Shown one piece after another: positions 1,383 to 56,026 of a stretch of 64,000 bases of DNA. Position numbers and translations under genes: made by a program. This DNA comes from a candidate division WOR-3 bacterium (GTDB lineage Bacteria > Hydrothermota > Hydrothermia > B15-G9 > WFZT01): the NCBI GenBank assembly GCA_027053075.1, contig JALUEE010000090.1, positions 10,392 to 74,391 on the forward strand, read 5' to 3'. The notes under the pieces are model-generated. The model was given only the letters and a program-made list of their open reading frames with translations. It did not search any database and was not told the DNA's origin. The number at the start of each line of letters is the position of its first letter. Within the stretch, counting starts at the first letter, position 1.

Positions 1383-2252
1383 ATGCAGGCTTATCTCCTT
1401 GTCCTTATTTGCGTCTCTCTCTGGGCCCTTATCCCGGTAGTTTCAAAATTAGGACAGACAAACCTCGACCATCACCAGTTTCTATTCTGGTCAAGTCTCC
1501 TCTCTTTCCTTGCATACTTCATTCCGCTCGTCCTAAAAAGGAATTCAGGCTGGAGTCTCTCGAGAAAAGAATCTTTTGAGGCTACAGGGCTTGGATTCCT
1601 TGGAACCTATCTTTACTACATTTTGCTGTACTATGGCTACTCTCATGCAAAGCCCCTCGAAGTGCTGATAATTCAATACAGCTGGCCCATTTTTATCGTG
1701 ATTTTATCTATGATCATATTGAATGAGCGTCTCACTGCTCTGCGGGGAGTTTCAGCACTATTTGGATTTATGGCAGTTTTACTTGTGATAACCAGGGGAA
1801 ATTTACATAGTATCCGGTTTTCAAATCTCAGCGTTGACCTGATAGTTCTTTTTGCCGCTTTTGTTTTTGCACTGTTTTCTGTACTGAGTAAAGACATAAA
1901 AATCCAGCCTTTACCTCTTCTTACTGTGTATTTTGGAACAGCCCTAATTTTTTCGCTCGCGGGGATGTTTATCTTCTCGAGCTTCAGAGTGCCTCACGGC
2001 AAAAGTATTCTGCCGGTGCTAATAAATGGAATCTTAGTGAATGGGTACTCCTACCTATTCTGGATACTTGCATTGAGGAAGGCGGAAGCGTCATATGTTG
2101 CGCTGTTTGTGTACCTAACGCCGATAATTTCGACTATGTATGTTGTGTTAATTTTTGGGGCGAGGCTCAGCCCGATTTTCGGGCTGAGCCTCGCCCTCAT
2201 AGTTATAGCCGGCATTCTAAATCAGAAATCACAGATGGGAAGCTCGGGTTAA
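1383..2252 (+). CDS. EamA/DMT-family transporter (10 TM)
   Basis: Two repeated 5-TM halves and hydrophobic throughout, the typical drug/metabolite transporter architecture. Confidence 0.7.
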   Translation: MQAYLLVLICVSLWALIPVVSKLGQTNLDHHQFLFWSSLLSFLAYFIPLVLKRNSGWSLSRKESFEATGLGFLGTYLYYILLYYGYSHAKPLEVLIIQYSWPIFIVILSMIILNERLTALRGVSALFGFMAVLLVITRGNLHSIRFSNLSVDLIVLFAAFVFALFSVLSKDIKIQPLPLLTVYFGTALIFSLAGMFIFSSFRVPHGKSILPVLINGILVNGYSYLFWILALRKAEASYVALFVYLTPIISTMYVVLIFGARLSPIFGLSLALIVIAGILNQKSQMGSSG

Positions 2253-6346: not shown

Positions 6347-7011
6347 CAGTCCTCACCTCCGTTTTCTTCAAGGATTTTTAAAATCATGCGAAAATCACTT
6401 TTGATTTCATGCATACGGCCTGGATTTCTCAAAATTGCCGCGGGGTGATATGTAACGAGCAACCTGGGGCCGAAAACCGATTCGTGGAGTTTACCCCTGA
6501 GTTTTGAAAGCGGAACCTTATCTCTTCCGGATAGGAAATACGCAGCAAATCTGCCAAGTGCCACAAGAAGCTTGGGTTTTATTATTTTTATCTGCTTTAC
6601 AAGATATGGGCTGCATGCCCTGATTTCTGCTGGAAGAGGGTCTCTATTGCCGGGAGGTCTGCATTTTAAAACATTGGCAATGTAAACATCTTTTTCCCTG
6701 TCAAGCCCAATCTCCTTTAGAAGTTGAGTCAAGAGTTTACCAGCCCTGCCAACGAATGGCAGACCTTCACGGTCTTCATCTGCACCCGGTGCCTCTCCCA
6801 CAAACATAACCTTTGCGTATGGATTCCCTGAGCCGAAAACGTAGTTTGTTTTTTGCAGGTGAAGGGGACACTTCTTACACCTGTAAACCTCTTCTTTTAG
6901 CTCTTCGAGTTCTTTTTCGACAGTTCTCACCTCTTCCTTCTCCACCAAAATTTCATTTATTCCGAGGAATTCTTTTAAAAACAGGAGTACTTCTAAGTTA
7001 TCCTTTCTCAA
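6346..7011 (-). CDS. uracil-DNA glycosylase, family 4
   Basis: CKKCPLHL...[19 protein letters not shown]...GRAG are family-4 UDG Fe-S and active-site motifs. Confidence 0.85.
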
Positions 7012-8176
7012 TTTTCTCGGCTATTTTGTCATAAAGCAAAATTGCAAGCTCGGACTTGGTTATGGTCTCGAGGGGTATTCTCTCTCCATCCTTCGTTAGA
7101 ATGTAGCCACTGATGTAATCGCTTCCCATGGCAGTAGCGTAATTTGCTACAATCATGTCCACTCCCTTCTCTTCCATCTTTTTTCTGGCGTTTTCAAGTA
7201 GATTTTTAGATTCAAGAGCAAATCCCACGAAAACCTGGTCGGGTCTCTTATGTTCACTCAGACTTTTCAAAATGTCTTCAGTAGGCTCAAATTCTACCAC
7301 CAGTTTTCCACCCCTTTTAACCTTGCCTTCCATTCTCCCAACAGGCTTAAAATCCGATACAGCGGCGGCCATTATCAGGACATCCGCTTTAGGCACAATT
7401 TCATGAAGGGTCGCCGAAAGCTGGTCAACACTGCGTGCGTAATAAATTTCATCGTAGTAAAGGGGATGAACCTCTACTCTTCCCACCACCGCGATAACGT
7501 GAGCTCCGAGTTCTTTTGCCCTTCTTGAGAGCGAAATACCCATTTTGCCGCTGGATTTATTGGTAATTACACGCACTTCGTCAATATCTTCTTCAGTGCC
7601 ACCATAGGTAATGACAATTTTTTTACCGCGTAATTTTCTCTCGGTATTTCCAATCTCGATGACCCTCTCAATGATGTCTTCGGGCTCAGCCATACGACCA
7701 ATGCCACGATCTCCAGAGGAAAGCTCACCTTCGTAAGGACCTATGAATTCATAGCCAAAAATTTTCAGCCTTTTAACATTGTCCTGAAGCACGCGACTGT
7801 TCCACATCTCGGTGTGCATGGCTGGAGCAAGTAAAACAGGTCTGTCAATAGCTCCGATGGTGGATGTCAGAAGGTCATCTGCAAGTCCGTGGGCGAGCTT
7901 ACCTAAAAAGTGCATGGTGGCCGGTGCCACTACTACAACATCTGGCCACCTCGCGAGCTCGATGTGAAGAGGGACTTTCTGACCAGGAATCCAGAAGTCG
8001 TCCTCTGTAAAAACATCGTTAACCGTAAGGTTTGATATAGAGAGTGATGAGATAAAATTCTCACCCCCTCTTGAAAGTATAGTTTTTACTTCATGTCCGG
8101 CTTTTACTAAAAGCCTTGCAACTAAAACACTTTTGTATGCCGCTATACTACCGGTTACGCCCAGAAGGACCTTCAC
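6998..8176 (-). CDS. coaBC: bifunctional phosphopantothenoylcysteine decarboxylase / phosphopantothenate-cysteine ligase
   Basis: N-terminal flavoprotein motif VLLGVTGSIAAYK plus a C-terminal CoaB domain; 392 aa. Confidence 0.9.
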   Translation of the reverse strand: MKVLLGVTGSIAAYKSVLVARLLVKAGHEVKTILSRGGENFISSLSISNLTVNDVFTEDDFWIPGQKVPLHIELARWPDVVVVAPATMHFLGKLAHGLADDLLTSTIGAIDRPVLLAPAMHTEMWNSRVLQDNVKRLKIFGYEFIGPYEGELSSGDRGIGRMAEPEDIIERVIEIGNTERKLRGKKIVITYGGTEEDIDEVRVITNKSSGKMGISLSRRAKELGAHVIAVVGRVEVHPLYYDEIYYARSVDQLSATLHEIVPKADVLIMAAAVSDFKPVGRMEGKVKRGGKLVVEFEPTEDILKSLSEHKRPDQVFVGFALESKNLLENARKKMEEKGVDMIVANYATAMGSDYISGYILTKDGERIPLETITKSELAILLYDKIAEKIEKG

Positions 8177-8396: not shown

Positions 8397-8468
8397 TTTT
8401 CAATCACCTCCAGGGCGTTGATTATAAAGCATTCAACCCGTATTTGGAATGTTTTTATGTGCTTTTTT

Positions 8469-8633
8469 AGGGGTGGCCCGCGCACTCTGTGCGCGGGCCA
8501 CCCCTAAAAAAGAGAGACAACTTTTCAATCAGCCCAACATGAGCTATTTGGCGAACTTCACGTTATTTGGGTTTCCAAAAGGAATCCCCCCATCTATCTC
8601 CTCCCCCCGCATAAATTTGTTCGCGGGGGGAGG
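8469..8633. repeat. pair of GC-rich palindromic units in the divergent rpoZ / TPR-lipoprotein promoter region
   Basis: AGGGGTGGCCCGCGCAC-TCTGT-GTGCGCGGGCCACCCCT (8469-8506) and CTCCTCCCCCCGC-ATAAATTTGTT-CGCGGGGGGAGGA (8598-8633). They share motifs with the repeats at 19.3, 28.1 and 50.4 kb. Confidence 0.6.
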
Positions 8634-8862
8634 ATGAAAGGAGAGGGGCCACATATTAAAGTTTTTTGGATAAAATGAGAGAAAATCTAACAAATTTTCC
8701 CTCACATCCAGTGTATGAGGGTATTTGTCTTAGATTATTAATTTTTCAAGAGAGATCCCTGCGTCTATACTTGCTTTGACAAGCAGTAGAAATCATTAAA
8801 TACACTCTATTTGCAAATGCAGATTATGGAGAATCAAATTTTCCAAATCCTTTTGTTTAACC

Positions 8863-8920: not shown

Positions 8921-10204
8921 AAGATGAAGAAGCTCATCATCGCTATAGCTGTATTCGGAGCACTCTATATGACATCTTGTGCACCACCGGCTTCTCAGCA
9001 GGGTGCGAATGTTACTGTTAAAAAAACAAAGAGAACCTATTCGCCGGACTCTGCCAAGATCTGGTTCTCCGTCGGCAAAGATTACCTGAATAAAAAGCGT
9101 TATGACGACGCCATCAGGAACTTTAAGGTCTCAATTGAGTACGATTCAACATTCATTCCTGCATACCTGAACCTCGCATGGGCTTATCTACAGAAGGCAC
9201 AGACGCTCACAATGGATACCACATGGAAGGTTTATTACGATTCTGCGGCAACGGTTTACAGAAAGATCGCTCAGATAGATCCAAAAGACTCCAGAGGCTG
9301 GCAGGGGCTCGGATTCATGTATGGAATTTATAAAAATGACATAGACTCAGGAATTTATTTTTACAGAAAAGCCCTTGAGGTGGACCCCAACAACAATGAT
9401 GCCCGCTACGGATTGGCAAAGTTGCTGGATAGGGCGGGCAGGAAAGATGAGGCCGAAAAACTATACAAAGAGGCCCTTGCAAAAGACCCGAACAATCCGG
9501 GTTTGAATAAATCCTACGGGAGATTCCTTGCAGAACAGAAGAGATATGCGGAGGCAGTTCCATATCTTGAAAAAGTCATTTCAAAGACTCCTAACGATTA
9601 CGAGTTGATTGGATACCTTGCCAAGGGATACGAACAACTTGCACAGAAGGAGCAGGACCCCCAGAAGAAGGCCGAATATATTGATAAAGCCCTTTATTAC
9701 TACGACAAACTGATTGAGCACAATCCCAAGGATTACACCCTCTACATGAAGAAGGGGGACCTCTTGCTGATGAAGGGCGACGTGGACGGTGCAATTGCCC
9801 AGTATGACAAGGCGATAGAGCTTGCCCCAAATAGCCCCTATCCATACCTGAAGAAGGTTGCAGTGATAATTGACAAGAAACACGATCAGATTGCAGCCCG
9901 TAAGATACTTTTGAAGGCCATCTCCCTTGAGATTCCAGACCCTGTTCTCAAAGCCGCTGCTTATGCTCTGCTGGCTGATACCTATATCTACACGGGTCGC
10001 CAGTATTACAAAAAGGCGAAGAAGGAAAAGATCAGAGACTACTACAAGGATGCTATGGACAATTACGACGAAGCAATCAAGTATCTTAAAAAAGTCCTTG
10101 AAATTCAGGGCGCGGGTAAATGGAAGGATTATGCGCAAAAGCAGCTTTTGAGGGTTCAGAAGCTGCGGAAATTTGCGTATCGTAAGTATGTTGGCATTGG
10201 GTAA
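8921..10204 (+). CDS. TPR-repeat lipoprotein
   Basis: MKKLIIAIAVFGALYMTSC lipobox signal, then multiple 34-aa TPR units (AW/LG/Y/A/P spacing). The ORF-track start at 8876 is probably too early. Confidence 0.75.
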   Translation, partial: KMKKLIIAIAVFGALYMTSCAPPASQQGANVTVKKTKRTYSPDSAKIWFSVGKDYLNKKRYDDAIRNFKVSIEYDSTFIPAYLNLAWAYLQKAQTLTMDTTWKVYYDSAATVYRKIAQIDPKDSRGWQGLGFMYGIYKNDIDSGIYFYRKALEVDPNNNDARYGLAKLLDRAGRKDEAEKLYKEALAKDPNNPGLNKSYGRFLAEQKRYAEAVPYLEKVISKTPNDYELIGYLAKGYEQLAQKEQDPQKKAEYIDKALYYYDKLIEHNPKDYTLYMKKGDLLLMKGDVDGAIAQYDKAIELAPNSPYPYLKKVAVIIDKKHDQIAARKILLKAISLEIPDPVLKAAAYALLADTYIYTGRQYYKKAKKEKIRDYYKDAMDNYDEAIKYLKKVLEIQGAGKWKDYAQKQLLRVQKLRKFAYRKYVGIG

Positions 10205-10713
10205 TGTCCGTTAAAGGAAGGGTACTTGTTTTAAATGGAAACTACGAACCTTTAAATGTAAGCACGGTAAAGAGGGCCGTTACCCTTGTTTATCTGGGGA
10301 AGGCCGAGATAGTTCACAGGTATGATGGCGGGGTATTGCGAGCCGAAAGGCTCGCAATACCCCGCCCAAGTGTTATTAAACTCCGCTACTACATCAAAGT
10401 CAAAAGAAGAGAAATACCCCTCACCAAGAAAAATATTCTCAAAAGGGATAACTACACATGCCAGTACTGTGGCACGACTGAGGGGCCAATGACTGTTGAC
10501 CATGTTATACCCAAAAAATACGGCGGAAAAGATACCTGGGAGAATCTTGTTTGTGCCTGTTTTAAATGCAACAACAAGAAAGGGGATAGAACCCCTGAAC
10601 AGGCTGGGATGAAACTACTCAGAAAACCAAGGAAGCCACACTACTTCCTCTTTATCTTAAACGGTGAGAAAATCCCCGACGAAAAATGGAAACCCTATCT
10701 TTTCATGGTTTGA
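10204..10713 (+). CDS. HNH endonuclease (stand-alone, McrA-like)
   Basis: CQYCG...DHVIPKKYGG...NLVCACFKCNNKKGD is the HNH ββα-Me motif. Its start overlaps the TPR gene stop (TAATG). Confidence 0.8.
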   Translation: MSVKGRVLVLNGNYEPLNVSTVKRAVTLVYLGKAEIVHRYDGGVLRAERLAIPRPSVIKLRYYIKVKRREIPLTKKNILKRDNYTCQYCGTTEGPMTVDHVIPKKYGGKDTWENLVCACFKCNNKKGDRTPEQAGMKLLRKPRKPHYFLFILNGEKIPDEKWKPYLFMV

Positions 10714-18918: not shown

Positions 18919-19159
18919 TCCTCCATTTTTCTATTCTCGTTTTTAGTTTAATAACCACTCATACCACTGTCAAGGATAGGGGGGGCGTTTCTATTCTGCA
19001 CAAGCGGTGTTTATTGTGGGTATTTCTTCATCCTTCGCTTACCTGGTGAGGGCACAGGATTGGTTATTACTCCTGGAAATCAAAGATATGGTAATCATTT
19101 AAACGGGGATTAACGGGTTCTTCACTCGAAAAGATTCCATTATGTAACCCTTTCTCGCT

Positions 19160-19425
19160 CCTTTCCCGTAAGAATTTACACGGGGAGAGGAAGTCTTATC
19201 TAATACCAAATCAAATTGTTGGGCCTACAACTTTTGCTATAGACTGAGTGAATTGCCACATATCAATTCCTGCAAGCACAACCTATGTGCATGGAGCACC
19301 GAAGGCACTTTCTTCATAAGTGAACCCTCTACCCGAAATTGGTAAGAATACTTATCTCCCCCGCGCTTTGCGCGGGGGAAGGCGACGGGTGGGGACATTC
19401 CGCTTAAAAACTATGTAAACAATGT
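19160..19425. repeat. intergenic mosaic repeat copy A
   Basis: GAATTTACACGGGGAGAGGAAGT block (19171-19194), CCCCCGCGC-TTTG-CGCGGGGG palindrome (19356-19378) and ACATTCCGCTTAAAAACTATGTAAAC block (19393-19420). Confidence 0.65.
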
Positions 19426-19450
19426 TCCCCGGTCTCAAGCTCCAATAAAT

Positions 19451-20537: not shown

Positions 20538-21215
20538 GTGATGGCAGGAAAACTGTTTGTGGTGGCCACACCTATCGGGAATATTAAAGATATAACACTG
20601 CGGGCACTTGAAACCCTTAAGGAGGTTGACCTTATCCTCTGTGAGGACACGAGAAGAACGAGACCTCTTCTCTCGCATTACGGTATTTCAAATGAGCTTT
20701 TATCTTACAACGAGCACAACGAGCGCGAAAGAATACCATACGTCTTGGAGATGCTCGAACAGGGCCATGATGTAGCACTGGTCTCAGATGCTGGTACTCC
20801 CGGAATTTCTGATCCCGGATACCGCCTCGTAAGAGAGGCAAGATTGAGAGACTTTGAAGTCGTCTCGATTCCTGGTCCCTCTGCAATTATTGCGGCCCTT
20901 TCTATTTCCGGTTTACCCACAGACAGATTCGTTTTTGAAGGCTTCCTGCCACGTAAGAAATCAAGGCGTTTAAAACGCCTGGAATTTTTGAAAAAGGAGG
21001 ATCGAACGATTATAATTTATGAGTCGGTTCACCGCATAGAGCGAACCCTCCATGAGATTTTAGAGATTATGGGTGATAGAGAGGTGGCTCTGTGCAGGGA
21101 ATTGACGAAAGTACATGAAGAAGTTAAATTTGGAATGCTAAGCGAAATAATCAAGAAAGGTTTCACGAAAAAAGGTGAGTTTGTGATAGTTTTAAGAGGC
21201 TATGATGAGTCTTGA
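20538..21215 (+). CDS. rsmI: 16S rRNA (cytidine1402-2'-O)-methyltransferase
   Basis: GKLFVVATPIGNIKDITLRALETLKEVDLILCEDTRRT is the RsmI/tetrapyrrole-methylase signature. Confidence 0.85.
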   Translation: MMAGKLFVVATPIGNIKDITLRALETLKEVDLILCEDTRRTRPLLSHYGISNELLSYNEHNERERIPYVLEMLEQGHDVALVSDAGTPGISDPGYRLVREARLRDFEVVSIPGPSAIIAALSISGLPTDRFVFEGFLPRKKSRRLKRLEFLKKEDRTIIIYESVHRIERTLHEILEIMGDREVALCRELTKVHEEVKFGMLSEIIKKGFTKKGEFVIVLRGYDES

Positions 21216-21786
21216 CGCTCTGAAGAAGAAAGGGAAATCTTCTTTAAGGCCCTTTGTTAATCTCATGATTGCTCTCAAGGTGTCCCCGGACACTTTGAGT
21301 GTGACGGGATTCCTTATAACTCTAATCATCGGTTATTTCTATGCTCGTGGAGAGCTTGTACTGGGTGGAATTTTTATACTCGTGTCCGGATTGTTTGATG
21401 CCATTGATGGAGAGGTGGCAAGGGCAACAGGGAAAAGTTCAAGAAAAGGGGCACTTCTGGACTCAAGCATAGATAGAGTATCTGAATTCTTTATCTTTGG
21501 CGGCCTTTTGTACTATTTTAGGGCTAACACCTATGCGTTTGTCATCCTCTACCTTTCACTTGTTTTTTCTATACTCGTGAGTTACATGAGAGCTCGTGGC
21601 GAAGGACTTGGGTATTCTGCCCGTTCGGGCTTGATGGATCGGTCTGGAAGGATGATATATTTATTCTTTGCGTCACTTCTTGGGGAGAGGACGTTTATCT
21701 CCCTCATGACTGTATTTATGGTTCTGACATTTGCCACTGTGGTGGAAAGGTGGTTGATTTTGAGAAAAATTCTTTCTGAAAAATAA
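21202..21786 (+). CDS. CDP-alcohol phosphatidyltransferase family protein (candidate phosphatidylinositol-phosphate or DIPP synthase)
   Basis: [12 protein letters not shown]...G...D motif and 5-6 TM helices. Overlaps rsmI by 14 nt and lies 11 nt upstream of the inositol-phosphate synthase gene. Confidence 0.75.
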
Positions 21787-21797
21787 GGAGGTTAGAA

Positions 21798-22895
21798 ATG
21801 GGAGAAATCAGAGTTGCGATTGTTGGTGTTGGTAATTGCGCATCAAGTCTGGTGCAGGGCGTTTACTATTATAGAAATGCCCAGCCCGGTGATTTTATTC
21901 CGGGAATTATGCATGTGATTTTCGGTGGGTATCACATCAATGACATTAAATTCTGTTGCGCGTTCGACATCAACAAGACAAAGGTAGGAAAGGACCTCTC
22001 AGAGGCTATTTTTGCTTACCCCAACAACACATACAAGTTTACAGATGTTCCCAAAATGGGAGTGAAAGTTTACCGCGGAATGACCCATGACGGAATAGGC
22101 AAATATCTTGCTGACATTATCGAGAAGGCACCTGGTCCTACAGACGATGTGGCAAAAATCCTCAAAGAAGAAGGTGCTGACGTCGTAGTGAACTTCCTGC
22201 CTGTGGGCTCAGAAGAAGCCACAAAATGGTATGTTGAGCAGGCAATCCAGGCTGGAGCAGCGTTTGTTAATGGAATTCCGGTGTTTATCGCAAGCTCCGA
22301 ATACTGGAGCAAGAGGTTTGAGGAAGCCGGACTTCCTGTGCTCGGAGACGATATTAAGTCTCAGGTCGGTGCGACCATTGTCCACAGGACACTGGTACAG
22401 CTTTTCCTCGACAGAGGAGTAAAGCTTGAGAGAACCTCTCAGCTCAATGTAGGTGGAAACACTGACTTCCTCAACATGCTCGAGAGGGAAAGACTTCACT
22501 CAAAGAAGATTTCCAAGACTCAGGCTGTAACATCACTCCTACCCTACGACATTGGTGAGGAGAATGTGTACATTGGCCCATCAGACTATGTGGCATGGCT
22601 CAAGGACAGAAAGTGGGCATACATGAGACTTGAAGGTAGGACTTTCGGAGACGTGCCTCTGAATATCGAGCTCAAGCTTGAGGTCTGGGATTCGCCCAAC
22701 TCTGCAGGTGTAATGATAGATGCCATCAGAGCTGCAAAGATTGCAAAGGATAATGGACTTAAGGGTGCAATAATCGAGCCTTCAAGCTACTTCTTCAAGT
22801 CGCCACCGAAGCAGTTCCCTGACTACAAGGCACGTGCACTGCTTGAGGACTGGATAAAGAAGCACACGGAGAAGAAGGAAGAAAAGAAGAAGTAA
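21798..22895 (+). CDS. myo-inositol-1-phosphate synthase (archaeal/bacterial type)
   Basis: [23 protein letters not shown]-terminus and Lys-rich C-terminus; 365 aa. AAGGAGG RBS. Confidence 0.85.
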
Positions 22896-22917
22896 TAATT
22901 TGGGAGATCTTTGAACT

Positions 22918-22962
22918 TAAGTGGGGCGGCACGCTTCGCGTGCCGCCCCACTTAATTTTTCT
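22918..22962 (+). terminator. rho-independent terminator
   Basis: AAGTGGGGCGGCACGC-TTC-GCGTGCCGCCCCACTT followed by AATTTTTCTC. Confidence 0.65.
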
Positions 22963-23387
22963 CAAAAAAATTTTAGCCCCTCTCTCACCGGTAGGTGAGG
23001 AGAGGGGGCTAAGTCAAACCACCTCCTGCGTCCTTATTCCCCCTCCATGCAATTTTACAAATGGCAATTTTTCTGCCACAAGATAAAATTTGGGATGGAG
23101 AAATGTATATGCTCCTTCTAATTAAGAGAAGTGTCCTTTCTAAACCCGGGCTGCAGGGCAGATAGGAGCAGAAAGATTTATCATAAATTCTTAAAAAGTT
23201 CTATTTGATGAACGGGCGGCGTGCTTTTGTCTGAAGTCCCATTTTGAGACTTAACCAGGAGGAAAAGTTCATAAAATGCCCAAAATTCCTGCTAATATAT
23301 CGAGTCCCAAAATGGGACACAAAAACGGAACACTCTAACTCATTTTATTTTCTGCGGAAAAACACTCTAAACCACAGGGTGAAAGCT

Positions 23388-27973: not shown

Positions 27974-28109
27974 GATTACCTCCTTGTAAATAGTTTAATC
28001 TTCGAGAGAAGGCGTTGCAATAGAGGGTGAATTTATGCGGGAAGGAAAATTTTGTAAGCAGGCATAAGCAATGAGTACTCGAGAGGCTCATCCTGTAAAA
28101 TAAAAAAAG

Positions 28110-28345
28110 AAAATACGCCCCTCTCCCACAAACTTAGTTTGTGGAAGAGGGTGCAGGGAGAAGGTATTCCGCTTGAAAACTTAAAAATCCAAGATGTAAA
28201 CCCTCACCCCACCCCTCTCCCGCGAAGCAGGAGAGGGAGATTTTCAGATTTTTGATTGAAATTTTGTCAGATGTGACCACTAACCTCATTCATATCCCAG
28301 CAGAGAATTTACACGGGGAGAGGAAGTTTATTTTGATGGGGTGTC
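28110..28345. repeat. intergenic mosaic repeat copy B (most complete)
   Basis: CTCTCCCACAAAC-TTAG-GTTTGTGGAAGAG palindrome, GGTATTCCGCTTGAAAACTTAAAAATCCAAGATGTAAACCCTCACCCC block, CCCTCTCC-CGCGAAGCAG-GGAGAGGG palindrome, then GAATTTACACGGGGAGAGGAAGT block. Confidence 0.7.
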
Positions 28346-28394
28346 TAAACTTTTTCTCTGGTAGAAAACCATTAAATTAGAGTGGATTGGGGAT

Positions 28395-30197: not shown

Positions 30198-30358
30198 CAG
30201 TCTCCGAATTCTTCGTAAAGTTTCTGATAATCTTCTGTATCAACGACGAATTGATTCAGCTTCTGGTCATCCCGATCGAAGATATTTTGTCTGTAACGTT
30301 GAAAATTTCTACCATTTCTTTTGAGTCTTCTCAGGTTTATGGTATTTTTGAGATTCAT
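30197..30358 (-). CDS. possible 54-aa basic small protein (MNLKNTINLRRLKRNGRNFQRYRQN...), TGATG-coupled to the methyltransferase gene
   Basis: Found by manual translation of the minus strand; below the 60-aa cutoff of the ORF track. Only a weak GAG Shine-Dalgarno. Confidence 0.25.
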   Translation of the reverse strand: MNLKNTINLRRLKRNGRNFQRYRQNIFDRDDQKLNQFVVDTEDYQKLYEEFGD

Positions 30359-30509: not shown

Positions 30510-30720
30510 AACGAAACTCCCTCCCTTCCACTGGAAGGGAGGGCTGGGGTGGAATGGGGGAACAAAATTTCGAAATAATTCATTTTCCCACTCTCCCCTG
30601 GCCTCTCCTTCCTCGAGAAAAGGAGGGAAATTTACGCTGCAATTATCATTGATGGGATTCCGTTAGAAAATGTGGCAATCAAAATTCAGATTTTTCGAAC
30701 AAGCTTGAACCGATGTTTAT
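30510..30720. repeat. intergenic mosaic repeat copy C (long form)
   Basis: CCCTCCCTTCCA-CTGG-AAGGGAGGG perfect palindrome, GGGGTGGAATGG, CTCCCCT...GGAGGGAAATTTAC, GATTCCGTTAGAAAATGTGG and GATTTTTCGAACAAGCTTG blocks. Paralogous to 36484-36745. Confidence 0.7.
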
Positions 30721-36163: not shown

Positions 36164-36171
36164 TTAAAAAG

Positions 36172-36243
36172 CTGGGGGGCAGGGATTCGAACCCCGACTA
36201 CCTGATCCAGAGTCAGGCGTCCTGCCGGTTAGACGACCCCCCA
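36172..36243 (-). tRNA. tRNA-Gln (anticodon CUG)
   Basis: U1-A72 acceptor pair, anticodon stem CCUGA/UCAGG, loop CUCUGGA, T-loop TTCGAAT; hand-folded. Confidence 0.7.
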
Positions 36244-36250
36244 AAATTTT

Positions 36251-36328
36251 TGGCAGCGCCACCGGGATTTGAACCCGGGTCTCCTGGCTGAGAACCAGGT
36301 ATCCTAGGCCGGACTAGACGATGGCGCC
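36251..36328 (-). tRNA. tRNA-Glu (anticodon CUC), CCA encoded
   Basis: UCGUCUAG D-arm as in tRNA-Glu, anticodon stem CCUGG/CCAGG, loop UUCUCAG, T-loop TTCAAAT; hand-folded. Confidence 0.7.
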
Positions 36329-36483
36329 GCGTGAAAGTGCTATATTTATAAACCACCACCCCATACCTGTCAATAGGAGGGGGTGTGTTTGAAAATGTTC
36401 CCCTGGTTATTTTGTAGCTATAGGTTAATAGATTGATCAGAAAAGTGAGGTTAAACAAGTTTCCTTAAGCATGTTAAGTAGCA

Positions 36484-36745
36484 AACTCCCTCCCTTCCGC
36501 TGGAAGGGAGGGTTGGGGTGGAATGGATAAATTTAATGATATCACTGTATGTTCTGAAATATCACTCCATTAGATATTCTAAATCTAAAGATTGTTAATC
36601 TTACCCCCATTCTCCCCTAACCCCTCCTTCCCCGGGGAAGGAGGGGAAATTTACCGACTGGTTTGCGATAATTAATGGAATTTTAAGAATCTTAAAAAGT
36701 GGAACTTAAATCGAGGATTTTTCGAACAGGCTCGTAGGAGGGGAG
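36484..36745. repeat. intergenic mosaic repeat copy D (long form with ~80-nt insertion)
   Basis: CCCTCCCTTCC-GC-TGGAAGGGAGGG, GGGGTGGAATGG, CCCTCCTTCCCC/GGGGAAGGAGGG 24-nt perfect palindrome, GGGGAAATTTACC and GATTTTTCGAACAGGCTCG. Confidence 0.7.
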
Positions 36746-37018
36746 TGTGTTTGAATAATTCCAACCCTAAAGATTGGTACCTGTAAGAAAGGTACATGTG
36801 ACTACTTTCTTTGTTTTGCCTGACTCTTAGGGTTGTGCAACCAGATATTCTTCTTCCGCAAAAAATTTATGCGAAGAGAGGAATTTCTTCGTGTAATTAG
36901 CAATGTATTTTTGAACTTGACGCAGGAGACTGGATTCAAAAATATTAAAAATTTTTAAATACCCGGCTTCTCTGTCACCTTTCACCCTCATTGAGGGGAC
37001 AATTGGGTTGACTTATAA

Positions 37019-45165: not shown

Positions 45166-45336
45166 AATCTGGTTTTTAGGGATGTAGAGTTGTTTTAATT
45201 TTTGTGGGGCCGCGCACTATTTTTCAAACTTCAAGCCTTTCGGTCAATATTTATACACTCGCTCAGGAATATCTCATTTTTCCTGAACCTGCAAATACCC
45301 ATTTGCCCATGGAGCCAGGATAGGAAGAGAATTTGT

Positions 45337-50265: not shown

Positions 50266-50364
50266 GCAAATTAGGAGAATTATTAAATTCAAAGAATTTT
50301 GTTTACTTTCCTGAGAGTTATTTGGTTATAGCAATCCCCATTGGAAATTATAAAATATAGCCCC

Positions 50365-50665
50365 TCACCTTGCCTCTCCCCGCAAAGAATTTATGCGGGG
50401 AGAGGAAGTTTTTGGGTGTAGGAGTAATTGATTGAACATGCAAACGGAGCGCATAGGCTAAATGAATTTCCACCTGTACATCCCTGCAATCACAATATAA
50501 ATTACCAGAAAACCAAGTAGAACCTTTCTAACAAGCGAAACTTGTTTCCCCCAACAACACAAAATATTTCCCTCCCCTGCGCTTTGCGCTGGGGAGGGTG
50601 AGGGAGGGGTATTCCGCTTGAAATCTTGAAATTACATATCTAAACCATCACCCTTACCCCCTTCT
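50365..50665. repeat. intergenic mosaic repeat copy E
   Basis: CCTCTCCCCGC-AAAGAATTTAT-GCGGGGAGAGG palindrome with embedded GAATTTATGCGGGGAGAGGAAGT block, CCCTCCCCTGCGC-TTTG-CGCTGGGGAGGG palindrome, then GGTATTCCGCTTGAAATCTTGAAATTACATATCTAAACCATCACCC block. Confidence 0.7.
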
Positions 50666-50906
50666 GCTAAGCTGAAGAGGTAGATAGATTTTTCCTCAAA
50701 ACTTTTGAAATGTAGCCTCTTTCCTCAACCCTCTTAAACAAATTTTTGTGGGAAAAGTTTTTTATAAAATCGTCAACCTGTTTGAGCCCCCTCGTTTAGA
50801 CGCTTCCTCGTAATTATGCGCCCCAATTTACACTGTAGCAAATTCAACAATGTGCACCAATAGAAACCCGGTTGTTTGTGCCATCGGTGGAAATTATCAT
50901 ATCAAT

Positions 50907-52722: not shown

Positions 52723-53331
52723 TTAGCCCTTTCTCGGGGCAATAACAAGAACAACATTATCCCCACGCCCAACCTGATAGACCCTGATCTTTCTATCCCT
52801 TTTGAGAATATCCCTGATGAGTTTTCTCTCTTCGGGGGAAAGGTCATCGTCAATGCGCATTTCCATGCCAGTTTCTTTTACCCTCTTTGCAACGGCTTTT
52901 GCCTTGTTGATAATGAACTCTCTACGACGTCTCCTGTATCCAGAGACATCTATGTCCACATGGATGTCATTCTTTTTACGTTTGATGAGCAAGGAGAGAA
53001 GATAAGCAAGGGCATCCAGATTCTTTCCCTTTTTACCAATGAAAACAGAGTCATACCCCCTGGTATGTATGTTTACATTGTATCTTTTCCTCCTTCTCGG
53101 CTCTATATCAATTTCGACTTTGACACCGAGGGTATCAAAAAATTCTTTTATTACCCCTTCTATGATGTCAAAGTCCTCTTCGTCCAGATAGAGCCGAATT
53201 TTTGCAGGCTCGCTATTAAACCCTTCATTTATAATTTCAAAGCGAGCCTCACTCCTCTCTATGCCTGCCTTCCTTAGCGCCTTTTCCAATGCCTCTTCTA
53301 CCGTTTTTCCTTCCTCTTCGATGTACCGCAT
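52723..53331 (-). CDS. jag: RNA-binding protein Jag/KhpB (Jag_N-KH-R3H)
   Basis: MRYIEEEGKTVEEALEKAL N-terminus; directly downstream of yidC. Confidence 0.85.
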   Translation of the reverse strand: MRYIEEEGKTVEEALEKALRKAGIERSEARFEIINEGFNSEPAKIRLYLDEEDFDIIEGVIKEFFDTLGVKVEIDIEPRRRKRYNVNIHTRGYDSVFIGKKGKNLDALAYLLSLLIKRKKNDIHVDIDVSGYRRRRREFIINKAKAVAKRVKETGMEMRIDDDLSPEERKLIRDILKRDRKIRVYQVGRGDNVVLVIAPRKG

Positions 53332-53334
53332 TCT

Positions 53335-54855
53335 CTACCCTCCGCTGTACTCTTTTTTGATCACGTACTGTTCAATTATGCTTAACAAATTATAAACAAA
53401 CCAATAAAGTACTATCCCTGAAGGGAATTTGAGGAATAGTACTGTAATAAAAATGGGCATAAACAAAGCCATCATCCTGGCATTTTTATCCTGCGCTGGC
53501 TGAGTTAACGCCTGACCAAGACTTGCCAGACCCATCAAAATTGGTAAAATGAAATAAGGGTCTGCACTTGAAAGGTCTTTTATCCATAGAATCCAGTGTG
53601 CCCCCCTCAGGTCAATGGTGGTCTTTAAGACCTGATAAAGAGCCCAGAAAATGGGGAACTGTAGCACGAGAACAAGGCAGCCCGAGAATGGATTTACCTT
53701 ATACTGCCTGTAGAGCTCCATCATTTCCTTGTTTAATCTCTGAGGATCATCTTTGTATATTTTCTGCAACTGCTTCATTTTCGGCTGGAGTTCCTGCATC
53801 TTCCTCATGGATTTCAAACTGTATCTGGTGAATGGGAAGAAGAGGATTTTCATCAGGATGGAGAAGATTACAATTGCCCAGCCATAATTTGGAATAAATC
53901 TGTGGATATACCTCAATGCGTAAAGGATTATTTTGGAGAAAATGTTGATGACAGGAGGTCCGAATTCATAAATACTTGCAAGGTCGTATCCCACATCCTT
54001 AAGGAGGAAATAGTCAATGGGCCCGAAATAAACCTTTAATGGATGTGGCCCATCTTTAGAAAGTGCATCAAAAGAAATCCTGTCTTTTTCCGCTCTTGCA
54101 TAGACCCTATGAAGCTTCCCCTTGTGAATTACATCAAAGGTGAAGTATTTTGTCCTTATGCCAAACCATGTAAAGTCATCGGCAATGGCCTTAAATTCAT
54201 ACTTTCTAAGTTTTTTGAGCCCTATTTTGTGGAGTTTATCTTTGTAATAGATAAATTTAAAATGTCTAACATCGTCAGAATGATTTTTTTCTGTCCCTTT
54301 CAAACCTGAATCAAACCTGTAGAGGATTTCACCCCTGTAACCCTTGATTTTAAGGTCATAATCGATCATGTAAATCTTTGGATCGAATTTAAAAACCTTT
54401 TCTATCTGTAGGTTATCATTAACTCTGGAAACAAGCTTTAATTCAAAAGGTCCATTTATAACAAAAGTATCTTTGGCCGCTTCGAAATCGAGATTTATCC
54501 CTTTAATGCTATCTGTTTCAAAATCAAACATTCCGTAACCTTCAGGGATAAGCTCAACGGGTTTACCAAAGGCATCTTTGTACTTTTTCAAAGTGTAACT
54601 TACAAGTAATCCCCCTTTCCTTGAGAATTTTGCGATAAAGGTGGGTGATTCCACTACTATCGGGGTAGTTACCTTTACTGTTTTAACTGCTTTTGTAACG
54701 GTTTTCTCAAGGCTTTTCCCTGCCTTTGTGGTATCAACCTGAGTGGACTGAGCTTTACTTACAGGCTTTTTGGGCTTTGGCTTCATGAAAAGCGCCTGAT
54801 ACAGGATGAGAAATAGGAATATGAATATGGTGTATGTTAGAAATCTTTTATCCAT
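53335..54855 (-). CDS. yidC: membrane protein insertase YidC
   Basis: Periplasmic domain plus a 5-TM core with the NPFSGCLVLVLQFPIF motif. Confidence 0.9.
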   Translation of the reverse strand: MDKRFLTYTIFIFLFLILYQALFMKPKPKKPVSKAQSTQVDTTKAGKSLEKTVTKAVKTVKVTTPIVVESPTFIAKFSRKGGLLVSYTLKKYKDAFGKPVELIPEGYGMFDFETDSIKGINLDFEAAKDTFVINGPFELKLVSRVNDNLQIEKVFKFDPKIYMIDYDLKIKGYRGEILYRFDSGLKGTEKNHSDDVRHFKFIYYKDKLHKIGLKKLRKYEFKAIADDFTWFGIRTKYFTFDVIHKGKLHRVYARAEKDRISFDALSKDGPHPLKVYFGPIDYFLLKDVGYDLASIYEFGPPVINIFSKIILYALRYIHRFIPNYGWAIVIFSILMKILFFPFTRYSLKSMRKMQELQPKMKQLQKIYKDDPQRLNKEMMELYRQYKVNPFSGCLVLVLQFPIFWALYQVLKTTIDLRGAHWILWIKDLSSADPYFILPILMGLASLGQALTQPAQDKNARMMALFMPIFITVLFLKFPSGIVLYWFVYNLLSIIEQYVIKKEYSGG

Positions 54856-54858
54856 AGC

Positions 54859-55122
54859 TTACCTCACAGGGTCGTAACCTCCGGGATTTAGTGGATTACA
54901 ACGCAAGATTCTCCAGATAGACATTAAACCTCCTTTTAAGATTCCGTATTTTTTGATTGCCTCGATGCTGTAATTTGAACAGGTTGGGTAAAATCTACAG
55001 GTGTGTGGGAGAGAGGGAGAAATAGCCCTTTGATAAAATTTAATCAGGGAAATTGCAATGTCACTCAGGAATTTTCCAGGTCCTTTGCGAACCTTTTCAG
55101 GTCTTCCTGAATCTCCTCCCAT
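54859..55122 (-). CDS. yidD: membrane protein insertion efficiency factor YidD (start uncertain)
   Basis: [37 protein letters not shown] is the YidD core. The ORF-track call (155 aa) runs into rnpA; an internal Met at 55122 would give 88 aa. Confidence 0.65.
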
Positions 55123-55379
55123 CTGGCCCTCAATGTATTGTGAGAGCCCATGAATATGTATTTCCCGGGTGGTAAGATGTCCAGGTTCAGCCTCACGACT
55201 TCCCTGAGCCTCCTCTTGACCCGATTTTTTTTGACCCTGGTTCTTAACTTTTTTGAAGCCGCGAAGCCGAATTTCTTTTCTTCTGACGGTACCCAGTACA
55301 CCACGAATGTTTTTAATCTTCTCCATCTCCCGTTTTTTATAATATAAAAAAAATCCTCGTTCTTCTTTAAGGTTTCCAA
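55065..55379 (-). CDS. rnpA: ribonuclease P protein component
   Basis: Basic [19 protein letters not shown]-like motif; sits between rpmH and yidD. Confidence 0.8.
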
Positions 55380-55383
55380 AAGA

Positions 55384-55518
55384 TCAGGCTGTTAAAACTT
55401 TTCTTCCTCTTCTTCTGCGGTTTCTTATAATTTTTCTACCTGATTTTGTTTTCATTCTCGCTCTGAAGCCATGTCTTCTCTTTCTTTTAATAATAGACGG
55501 CTGAAAAGTCCTCTTCAT
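55384..55518 (-). CDS. rpmH: 50S ribosomal protein L34
   Basis: Manual translation gives [44 protein letters not shown] (44 aa). AGGAGG RBS. Not in the ORF track because it is under 60 aa. Confidence 0.85.
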
Positions 55519-55546
55519 TGGGGCCTCCTTGGGGAATTTTTACAAG

Positions 55547-55622
<76 letters not shown>

Positions 55623-55879
55623 ACGTTAAGCTCGTATATTATAATAAGTATGCAAAAAATTTACAAGTGAAGTTGGTTCTGTTTATGGGGAGAGGTAAAA
55701 AGTAAAGGTTTTCGTGGATTCCATGATATTAAATCCATTGAAAGCCACAGCTCCCATGTAAGAGTGAAATATTACCATTCTGGAGATATCCAGATCGGCC
55801 AAAAATAAGGCTAACCTGCCGTGTACGATACTTCCGGGTATTTGACATTTCATTTTCTTGGCCAATAAACTAAATCCCG

Positions 55880-56026
55880 ATGAGAAAGATTGGATGGATA
55901 ATAGCGATAATTGTTACCATTACAGTTTCTGCGGCCTTTCTATATCACGGGATAAAGGCCGGAGAAAATAACGAAATAGGGATGAATGCATCACTTATCT
56001 GTTTTTCATGCATCGGGCTTGAATAA
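55880..56026 (+). CDS. possible 48-aa small membrane protein with CFSC motif, TAATG-coupled to the polyferredoxin gene
   Basis: Manual translation gives MRKIGWIIAIIVTITVSAAFLYHGIKAGENNEIGMNASLICFSCIGLE. Confidence 0.3.
   Translation: MRKIGWIIAIIVTITVSAAFLYHGIKAGENNEIGMNASLICFSCIGLE

Follow-up and report, generated by a model that had tools for sequence, protein, structure and literature searches.

What occupies the intergenic spacer at 28.1 kb, and is it peculiar to this place? The window, by which we mean the whole stretch of 64,000 nt that was analysed, is ~90% coding. An earlier note had described in this spacer (hereafter the flagged locus) a mosaic of GC-rich palindromes and AT-rich blocks, shared by at least seven loci and never found inside ORFs. 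The placement was borne out: every member of the repeat family is intergenic, the genes contain none, and 7/8 of the spacers of at least 420 nt are occupied by members. The genes of the window are ordinary chromosomal housekeeping genes. The closest named homologues of the aldolase (70% identity) belong to Candidatus Hydrothermota and candidate division WOR-3 MAGs, and the presence of di-myo-inositol-phosphate synthesis genes suggests a thermophile. A viral source of the repeats was considered and rejected; the viral collection gave one chance match, which did not contain the hairpin.

A repeat search of the window recovered six direct-repeat families (D1, D2, D4, D5, D7 and D13) at the loci where repeats had been reported. 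By sensitive self-BLAST, positions 19170-19412 aligned with 50385-50626 (248 nt, 65%, E 5e-20) and 28102-28288 with 50553-50727 (187 nt, 69%, E 1e-18), and 28255-28329 matched 50340-50411. The segments 30514-30557 and 36483-36526 were 95% identical, 30565-30705 matched 36581-36732, and 8599-8664 gave an inverted match to 50406-50345. The repeats were confirmed at these places, with one correction to the membership: two long palindromes (8462-8512 and 22914-22958) and a half-site (45204-45217), which had been counted as members, belong to a different, terminator-like class. Palindromes of this separate class lie at many gene ends; with a 5' arm rich in G and flanks of A/T runs, they resemble bidirectional terminators.

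The short blocks are the best-conserved stretches within far longer homologies. The 23-mer block has three occurrences in the window, compared with 0.00 expected; its start positions, 19172, 28305 and 50387, are each shifted by +1 relative to those first given. The 16-mer GGTATTCCGCTTGAAA of a second block occurs five times with up to three mismatches, compared with 0.65 expected. This second block had been called nearly identical between two loci, but the copies at 28163 and 50608 are identical only over their first 16 nt and ~70% alike beyond. Hairpins with a C-rich 5' arm number eight in the window and 0-1 in shuffled sequences.

The blocks are not confined to the window. JALXCE01 (GCA_026991055.1, 'candidate division WOR-3 bacterium') has contigs that are 94-95% identical to the window over 26.7-36.2 and 43.9-55.3 kb, and the blocks are found on at least 18 other contigs of this ~95%-identical genome. 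There, an exact 22-mer occurs 19 times on 18 contigs, often at their ends; it is also present on five JGI contigs. An nhmmer search of 176 kb gave 133 matches and ~69 non-overlapping S-like modules, and alignments between copies extended over 250-390 nt with E-values down to 1e-46. Numerous JALXCE01 contigs terminate inside islands of these repeats, which is the usual mark of a multi-copy repeat. By extrapolation, the genome-wide copy number would be on the order of 100.

The genes beside the islands are unrelated housekeeping genes (aldolase, radical SAM, queG, tatC, fakA, tricorn-like protease, mfd, hisG, lptD, feoB and ppdK). Dozens of copies in JALXCE01 contigs have unrelated neighbours of this kind. 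Islands occur in both orientations relative to the genes, and the distances to the genes vary. Since the neighbours are unrelated and distances and orientations are variable, the shared strings are not the promoter flanks of one gene family. Neither of the two outcomes that the earlier note had named as speaking against its reading, blocks unique to the window and flanks of one family's promoters, was observed. We also considered chance similarity of low-complexity sequence (CCCTCC/GGGAGG), because the arms are compositionally simple and the G-rich and C-rich tracts pair promiscuously, giving many weak two-strand matches. The length and significance of the alignments between copies, the excess of hairpins over shuffled sequences and the unrelated neighbours refute both possibilities, to which we assign practically no probability.

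The anatomy of the elements was derived from full copies in the window and in JALXCE01 contigs, which were aligned (alignment A1, 14 copies) and profiled. The basic module is ~45-75 nt in size and consists, in this order, of an A/T-rich stretch, often a GT(A/T/G)(G/A) head, a C-rich leader CCCCTCACC, 4-5 nt, a hairpin and a tail. The hairpin is GC-rich, comprises 11-16 bp with an all-pyrimidine 5' arm, and is followed by AAG and the T-rich tail. Hairpin cores measure 25-37 nt, and conservation spans 45-95 nt by including the leader, the upstream A/T-rich stretch and the tail. Three hairpin types were distinguished: H1 (CCTCTCCCCGC, with the loop (A)AGAATTTAT, in which AATTT is invariant across the 14-copy alignment), H3 (CCCTCTCCCGC, with a loop of 3-4 nt) and H2 (with the base CCCTCCCCC, a variable distal stem of 4-6 bp and a 3-nt loop). 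In 26 of ~30 H1-type modules, a GTAG, GTTG, GTTA, GTAA or GTGG head precedes the C-rich leader at 14-18 nt upstream of the stem, a position that is taken by AATA, AAGG or AAAG in H2-type modules.

Three modules in + - + orientation and two conserved linkers form a composite unit of ~340 nt with the layout H1(+) - linker M - H2(-) - linker B - H3 or H1(+). Linker M joins its modules tail-to-tail, is ~150 nt long and sets H1 and H2 apart by ~130-175 nt. Linker B joins head-to-head, is ~40 nt long with a 13-nt core ATTCCGCTTGAAA, and gives an H2-to-H3/H1 spacing of 61-65 nt. H2 is always oriented opposite to H1 and H3, so that the G-rich tract that follows it on the element strand is the complement of its own leader. 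The blocks, first taken for independent modules, were placed by alignment and profile as parts of this unit; its most complete copy lies at 50.3-50.7 kb and not at 28.1 kb, which had been thought the fullest. From the invariant AATTT of the H1 loop and the conservation of linker B, one might suspect a role that goes beyond selfish spread.

Units were found whole, in tandem, truncated and as solo modules (Table 1). Tandem units follow each other head to tail with ~50 nt from H3 to the next H1, and islands reach up to 1 kb in contig L003. The H3(+) to H1(+) junctions in such islands are direct, which is a departure from strict alternation. At the flagged locus, the 5' arm of S(H1) has decayed. 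The truncated unit at 19128-19444 stops 7 nt from the queG stop codon. The second (E/F) subfamily represents the same kind of module as an inverted pair, with the hairpins CCCTCCCTTCC and CCCCTCCTTCC, and we only tentatively assign the variant hairpin at 22975-23010 to the family.

Table 1. Positions and parts of repeat-family members and related hairpins in the window
Feature	Position	Strand	Parts and evidence
Complete composite unit S(H1) - M - H2 (inverted) - B - S(H3)	50341..50683	+	nhmmer profile of A1 covers 4-352 of 353, E 2.5e-84; aligns with full copies in contigs L002-L022
S(H1) module of the 50.3-kb unit	50344..50416	+	S-profile match, E 1.6e-21; exact 23-mer at 50387
Parts of this S(H1)	hairpin 50373-50405	+	Leader AGCCCCTCACC; hairpin CCTCTCCCCGCA / TGCGGGGAGAGG, loop AAGAATTTA; tail AAGTTTTT; hairpin search
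Linker M, poorly conserved	50417..50558	+	Mini-hairpin AACAAG-CGAA-CTTGTT; A1 columns ~90-265; folds
H2 module	50570..50609	-	Hairpin 50570-50598 (CCCTCCCCTGCGC TTT GCGCTGGGGAGGG); covariance-model alignment of helix
G-rich tract after H2, complement of leader	50599-50609	+	Within inverted H2 module
Linker B, C-rich leader and short H3 hairpin	50610..50680	+	Linker B TATTCCGCTTGAAAT...; H3 hairpin 50660-50680
Degenerate extra S module, start of next unit	50699..50754	+	S-profile match, E 0.0013; tail of A1
Flagged locus, permuted/partial unit	28105..28348	+	Self-BLAST, profiles
Order of parts at flagged locus	28119-28332	+	H2 28119-28151; G-rich tract 28152-28164; linker B and leader 28165-28210; H3 28213-28237; linker; S(H1) 28260-28332
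Isolated H1 hairpin fragment (loop and 3' arm) beside aldolase promoter	28029..28049	+	Read from sequence; conserved in all strains
3'-truncated unit	19128..19444	+	S(H1) 19131-19198, M, H2 19357-19379, start of linker B 19395-19420; nhmmer profile 4-331, E 2.9e-58
Solo S(H1)-type module	8599..8667	-	Hairpin 8599-8634, compensated variant stem CCTCCCCCCGC / GCGGGGGGAGG; S-profile E 5.6e-13 (minus); inverted match to 50345-50406
Variant hairpin (tentative member)	22975..23010		Leader-like AGCCCCTCTCTCACC paired with its own complement GGTGAGGAGAGGGGGCT; read from sequence; no profile match
Second subfamily (E/F type)	30514..30705	+	Direct repeats D4, D5, D13; self-BLAST
Inverted module of 30.5-kb E/F copy	30519-30560		Hairpin CCCTCCCTTCC ACT GGAAGGGAGGG and G-rich tract
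Forward module of 30.5-kb E/F copy	30587-30627		Leader CCCACTCTCCCC and hairpin; B-like block 30654-30682
Second E/F copy	36483..36732	+	Direct repeats, self-BLAST
Parts of 36.5-kb E/F copy			Hairpin 36488-36512, G-rich tract 36513-36526; leader 36606-36617, hairpin 36621-36646; block 36694-36732
Degenerate S(H1) hairpin	36852..36889	+	TTCCGCAAAAAATTTATGCGAAGAGAGGAA; family D1; S-profile E 8e-5

The ends of the unit are S(H1) on the left and S(H3 or H1) on the right, co-oriented and with homologous 5' flanks; the left boundary is A/T-rich and fuzzy. The sole inverted similarity of the unit is that of the hairpin arms, which is trivial. We rejected an assignment to the MITEs because terminal inverted repeats are absent and the same S module stands at both ends in direct orientation. 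A CRISPR array, which had been discounted from the start, was rejected as well: the segments between the hairpins are conserved between loci and are not unique spacers, and there are three hairpin types in two orientations. A scan of the window against Rfam at the gathering threshold reported tRNAs only, and an E-value scan of five element-rich loci added sub-threshold hairpin look-alikes only.

We investigated the conservation of base pairing with a covariance model that spans H2 through the next leader and to which 26 copies were aligned. This alignment was used in place of RNAalifold on a MAFFT alignment, in which stems of unequal length were misaligned. An unfiltered search with the model was noisy, as any C-rich or G-rich hairpin matched on both strands. 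In the 26-copy alignment the H2 helix was 97% paired and 11/16 pairs were changed on both sides, values that are to be read with the fitting of the alignment to the model and the shared ancestry of the copies in mind. When the partner was slid by 1-3 columns as a control, whole-structure pairing fell to 43-61%. The distal stems took 17 distinct forms among 28 H2 copies, all of them complementary. Compensated changes in DNA palindromes can also arise by template-switch mutation, without selection.

Minimum free energy folds of 14 copies indicated that the H2(-)/H3(+) pair can fold into one long hairpin, in which the G-rich tract pairs with the C-rich leader around linker B. In the model-fitted alignment this long stem was 78-82% paired with many G.U pairs and little covariation, and an inner CTTGAA/TTCAAG stem was 84.5% paired almost without covariation. 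We regard both of these predicted stems as plausible but unproven. Among 48 H1/H3 hairpins, 18 G.T-type and five C.A-type mismatches were counted on the element strand (binomial ~0.01, the copies not being independent). This asymmetry suggests that one particular strand folds, either as RNA or as single-stranded DNA. Strand-biased deamination is an alternative source of such a G.T excess. Folding energies gave no strand preference, those of the reverse strand being equal or lower.

We also considered whether the modules could be independent genes for ~55-nt hairpin RNAs, each comprising an S module and the upstream TTGAAA...ATGTAG and together forming a multi-copy family of regulatory sRNAs with a leader CCCCUCACCUC that resembles the anti-Shine-Dalgarno end of 16S rRNA. 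A conserved TTGAAA does lie 16-18 nt before ATGTAG, followed by leader, hairpin and T-rich tail, and the invariant H1 loop and the strand-specific mismatch pattern are consistent with this arrangement. The second hexamer (TGTAGC or ATGTAG), however, does not have the A2 and T6 of a -10 box, whereas canonical promoters are present in the same genome (TTGACA-17-TATAAA at the tRNA operon and TTGCAA-17-TAAACT at the aldolase gene). A promoter scan found nothing within the elements, no Rfam family matched, and H2-type modules do not have the TTGAAA...ATGTAG stretch. Taken together, these findings make sRNA genes very unlikely. Linker B itself was rejected as a sigma-70 promoter, since its TTGAAA-N17-TGTAGC is without the key -10 bases and the scan was empty.

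Another possibility is that the modules are primarily functional elements at the RNA level (terminator-like, insulating or 3'-end stabilising) that are selected in the larger spacers of a compact thermophile genome and repeated by cassette duplication and not by transposition. Read in its own orientation, a module provides a strong GC hairpin, AAG and a T-rich tail, and at least four T residues at +3 to +10 were present in 30 of 34 H1 copies. The modules of a full unit face both ways and could thus halt transcription from either side, on the minus strand the H2 of the flagged locus is called as a terminator, and the element strand tolerates G.U-type mismatches. For the REPs of E. coli, effects in 3'-UTRs are documented. 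Yet the consensus terminator scan flagged only the H2 of the flagged locus and neither H1 nor H3; the T-run begins 2-3 nt past the stem, and the loops have 8-10 nt. The orientation of solo modules towards genes is inconsistent, those at 8599-8667(-), 19131(+) and 28260(+) being antisense to or upstream of their neighbours. Moreover, the genome has different gene-end palindromes of its own, and orthologous copies decay or are replaced between close strains. We consider a primary function of this kind unlikely, if less so than sRNA genes. A terminator or insulator role is also credible as a secondary function.

We compared four orthologous spacers between strains. The flagged locus was present in all strains, but the 3' arm of H2 differs by an indel of 13 nt and H1 has decayed differently (L038, L041). 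The 30.5-kb spacer carries the E/F-type pair in the window and an H2-B-S(H1) element in JALXCE01. The 50.3-kb island is absent from JALXCE01, which has two small genes there instead; homology breaks at the upstream gene's stop codon and 46 nt ahead of the downstream start. At 22.9 kb, the hairpins lie inside one contiguous alignment (96.4% identity) to scaffold L039, which is of the same lineage and from another metagenome. No clean pair of empty and filled alleles was found among these spacers, the 50.3-kb and 30.5-kb comparisons showing whole spacers replaced.

More distant relatives were screened as well. The ~84 kb screened from six lineages with 79-88% aldolase identity contained no composite unit, and neither did an additional 20.6 kb (L044) of one of these lineages. 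The neighbours of the relatives at the aldolase and BcrAD junctions differ from those in the window. In one relative (L029/L044), H2-like hairpins carry the same ATTGA-GGAGGGGG flank, and its L044 sequence holds a bare inverted doublet of the same module type without linker B. As the module type is found in a distant relative, it is older than the species, and the composite of 340 nt seems to have been elaborated recently and locally.

Several known families of non-coding repeats resemble these elements. The REPs and BIMEs of Enterobacteria, Pseudomonas, Xanthomonas and Stenotrophomonas (Nunvar 2010, PMC2817692; Ton-Hoang 2012, PMC3333891) are likewise extragenic, high-copy GC-rich hairpins, and the WOR-3 family is extragenic with many copies per genome. 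Shared with them are also the mosaics of alternating modules with conserved linkers of two lengths, the complementary stem changes, and a GT(A/G)G-like tetranucleotide that is conserved on the 5' side of the module. Across loci we found the alternating hairpins, regular spacing and conserved linkers that define BIMEs, and as in BIMEs the content of individual loci varies between strains, here between ~95%-identical genomes. In REPs, however, the GT(A/G)G head is located directly 5' of the stem (PMC2817692, PMC3333891), whereas the WOR-3 head is not at the foot of the stem but separated from it by the C-rich leader of 9-10 nt and a spacer of 4-5 nt, and the module is longer. Strict REP membership is thus denied by a head 14-18 nt from the stem that is missing from the H2 type. 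The WOR-3 family differs further from REPs and BIMEs in its long (~40 and ~150 nt), well-conserved linkers and 340-nt unit, in its direct H3-H1 neighbours, in a host that does not belong to the Proteobacteria, and in that no RAYT was found in the 334 kb searched, which cover the genome only in part.

REPINs (Bertels & Rainey 2011, PMC3116915; PMC3337134) share the two inverted hairpin modules at a fixed spacing, here 61-65 nt, and the L044 relative has such a doublet in bare form. In the focal species, by contrast, the doublet forms part of a three-module unit, and its long stem shows little covariation. Pneumococcal BOX elements (boxA-boxB(n)-boxC; Croucher 2011, PMC3049150) are also modular, intergenic, non-coding mosaics with a variable number of subunits and strong predicted structure; they have no sequence relationship to the WOR-3 family, whose logic is one of alternating hairpin modules, and come from a different phylum. 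Non-autonomous derivatives of IS200/IS605 (palindrome-associated elements; PMC6006769) have no terminal inverted repeats and carry same-strand subterminal hairpins at both ends with similar 5' flanks, and the WOR-3 unit agrees with them in these features. Both also show signs of a strand-specific fold, but a third, internal inverted hairpin is atypical of these derivatives, no conserved target tetranucleotide was recognised, and neither tnpA nor tnpB was seen in the 334 kb searched, which cover the genome only in part. With MITEs such as Correia and ERIC, the family shares a length of 100-400 nt and a non-coding, intergenic, multi-copy nature; its ends, however, are direct repeats, and no target-site duplication was detected in comparisons in which whole spacers were replaced. 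The initial description as REP/BIME- or MITE-like therefore holds for the BIME architecture (+ - + with 61-65 nt and conserved linkers) and not for MITEs or REPs in the strict sense.

We conclude, with a probability of about 0.65, that the elements are a REP/REPIN/BIME-like family of non-autonomous intergenic repeats, lineage-specific to a thermophilic WOR-3 (Hydrothermota-like) bacterium. With its defined anatomy, its restriction to intergenic DNA, its dispersal in many copies beside unrelated genes, its maintained stems and its turnover between ~95%-identical genomes, the family is ordinary in kind; its sequence and its lineage are new, whereas the type of system is a familiar one.

REPs and the ends of IS200/IS605 are hairpins that are bound on single-stranded DNA by HUH/Y1 enzymes (PMC2817692, PMC3333891). 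By analogy, the WOR-3 elements would be non-autonomous selfish DNA that is copied or recombined via a single-stranded, hairpin-folded intermediate. This intermediate would be recognised in trans by an enzyme of the HUH/Y1 type (RAYT- or IS200/IS605-like) encoded elsewhere in the genome. After insertion, the stable stem-loops and T-rich tails may act incidentally as transcript ends or insulators.

No transposase was found in the 334 kb searched, which cover the genome only in part, by tblastn with approximate IS200, IS608 and E. coli RAYT queries, nor by Pfam scans of ~40 ORFs. RAYT genes are typically single-copy (PMC5581495), so that absence from a partial genome sample says little. Two unannotated ORFs between islands in contig L011 were like those of secreted proteins and not enzymes. 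In a reading that we regard as improbable, the elements would not be passengers of an enzyme of the RAYT/IS200 type. WOR-3 would then either have an unrecognised mobilising or binding protein of its own, with the AATTT of the H1 loop and the ATTCCGCTTGAAA core of linker B as putative sites, or express the S modules as small hairpin RNAs that influence translation in trans through their anti-Shine-Dalgarno-like leader.

Mosaics of the REP/BIME type are best characterised in Proteobacteria, and to our knowledge WOR-3 had no cultured member until recently. The family described here would be a detailed example of this type in the candidate phylum WOR-3, and it is unusually elaborate with its three modules and two conserved linkers. 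Our findings leave the current understanding of how such elements work unchanged. In practical terms, most large spacers are filled by the repeats, at which short-read assemblies break, many MAG contigs ending inside them; the repeats also mark fast-evolving loci usable for strain typing. They further offer a lead in the search for a cognate single-strand-DNA transposase.

The stretch of the window that includes the complete repeat unit (50266-50803) has a different counterpart in the 95%-identical WOR-3 genome JALXCE01 (GCA_026991055.1). At the same place, its orthologous contig JALXCE010000297 (L042, 6355-7620) carries two small minus-strand genes. This two-gene insert is possibly a small cassette, either mobile or for defence. 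The two genomes also differ by an indel of ~270 nt (window 30290-30345 versus 5870-6150 of the orthologous contig L038), which lies inside a small ORF upstream of a methyltransferase gene. The ORF encodes 139 aa in JALXCE01 and is truncated both in the window and in L001, a further sequence compared with it; this looks like gene decay beside a repeat-bearing spacer.

Besides the repeat family, the window contains long perfect GC-rich palindromes, which are located at gene ends and have stems of 15-24 bp, loops of 3-4 nt and a 5' arm rich in G; runs of A and of T often border them. They resemble bidirectional intrinsic terminators fit for high temperature. The tip GCGCAC NNN GTGCGC is common to several of these palindromes and to many H2 hairpins, one of the hairpin types of the repeat family. 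Inositol-1-phosphate synthase and CDP-alcohol phosphatidyltransferase, also encoded here, are members of the pathway for di-myo-inositol-phosphate, a solute characteristic of (hyper)thermophiles. The HNH endonuclease gene lies directly 3' of a TPR protein gene.

Features in the window and in compared sequences
Feature	Position	Strand
Long perfect GC-rich palindromes	window 2155-2199, 2344-2380, 8462-8512, 10327-10366, 22914-22958	
Half-site only of the GC-rich palindrome class	window 45204-45217	
Stand-alone HNH endonuclease gene, 169 aa	window 10204-10713	+
Inositol-1-phosphate synthase and CDP-alcohol phosphatidyltransferase genes, adjoining	window 21202-22895; L001 7509-9199	
jag(khpB)-yidC-yidD cluster, then tRNA-Val and 699-nt spacer	window 52723-56025	- (cluster)
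80-aa product, Pfam AF_1447 family	L042, within 6355-7620	-
323-aa product, faint NucS_C match	L042, within 6355-7620	-

The order of the jag(khpB)-yidC-yidD cluster is typical for the rnpA/dnaA-oriC neighbourhood, and the 699-nt spacer after tRNA-Val is the sole large spacer of the window without members of the repeat family. Cumulative GC skew is lowest near 31 kb and highest near 51 kb; the genes change strand near 30.5 kb. A repeat island adjoins a tRNA gene cluster on its promoter side both in the window (36171-36328) and in L020 (398-746), a contig with copies of the family; the arrangement may be due to chance or may reflect a favoured site.

The 17-mer GATTTTTCGAACARGCT is present in two window spacers (30689-30705 and 36716-36732; 0.03 expected). 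It also occurs at 9405-9421 of L032, upstream of the aldolase gene; this relative, whose aldolase is 79% identical, does not have the repeat family. The 17-mer may serve as a regulatory site and not belong to the repeats. At 9230-9330, this L032 spacer has short tandem motifs of its own, GGCGAGACGCC twice and AAGTGGGAC three times, and spacer repeats therefore seem to differ among related lineages.
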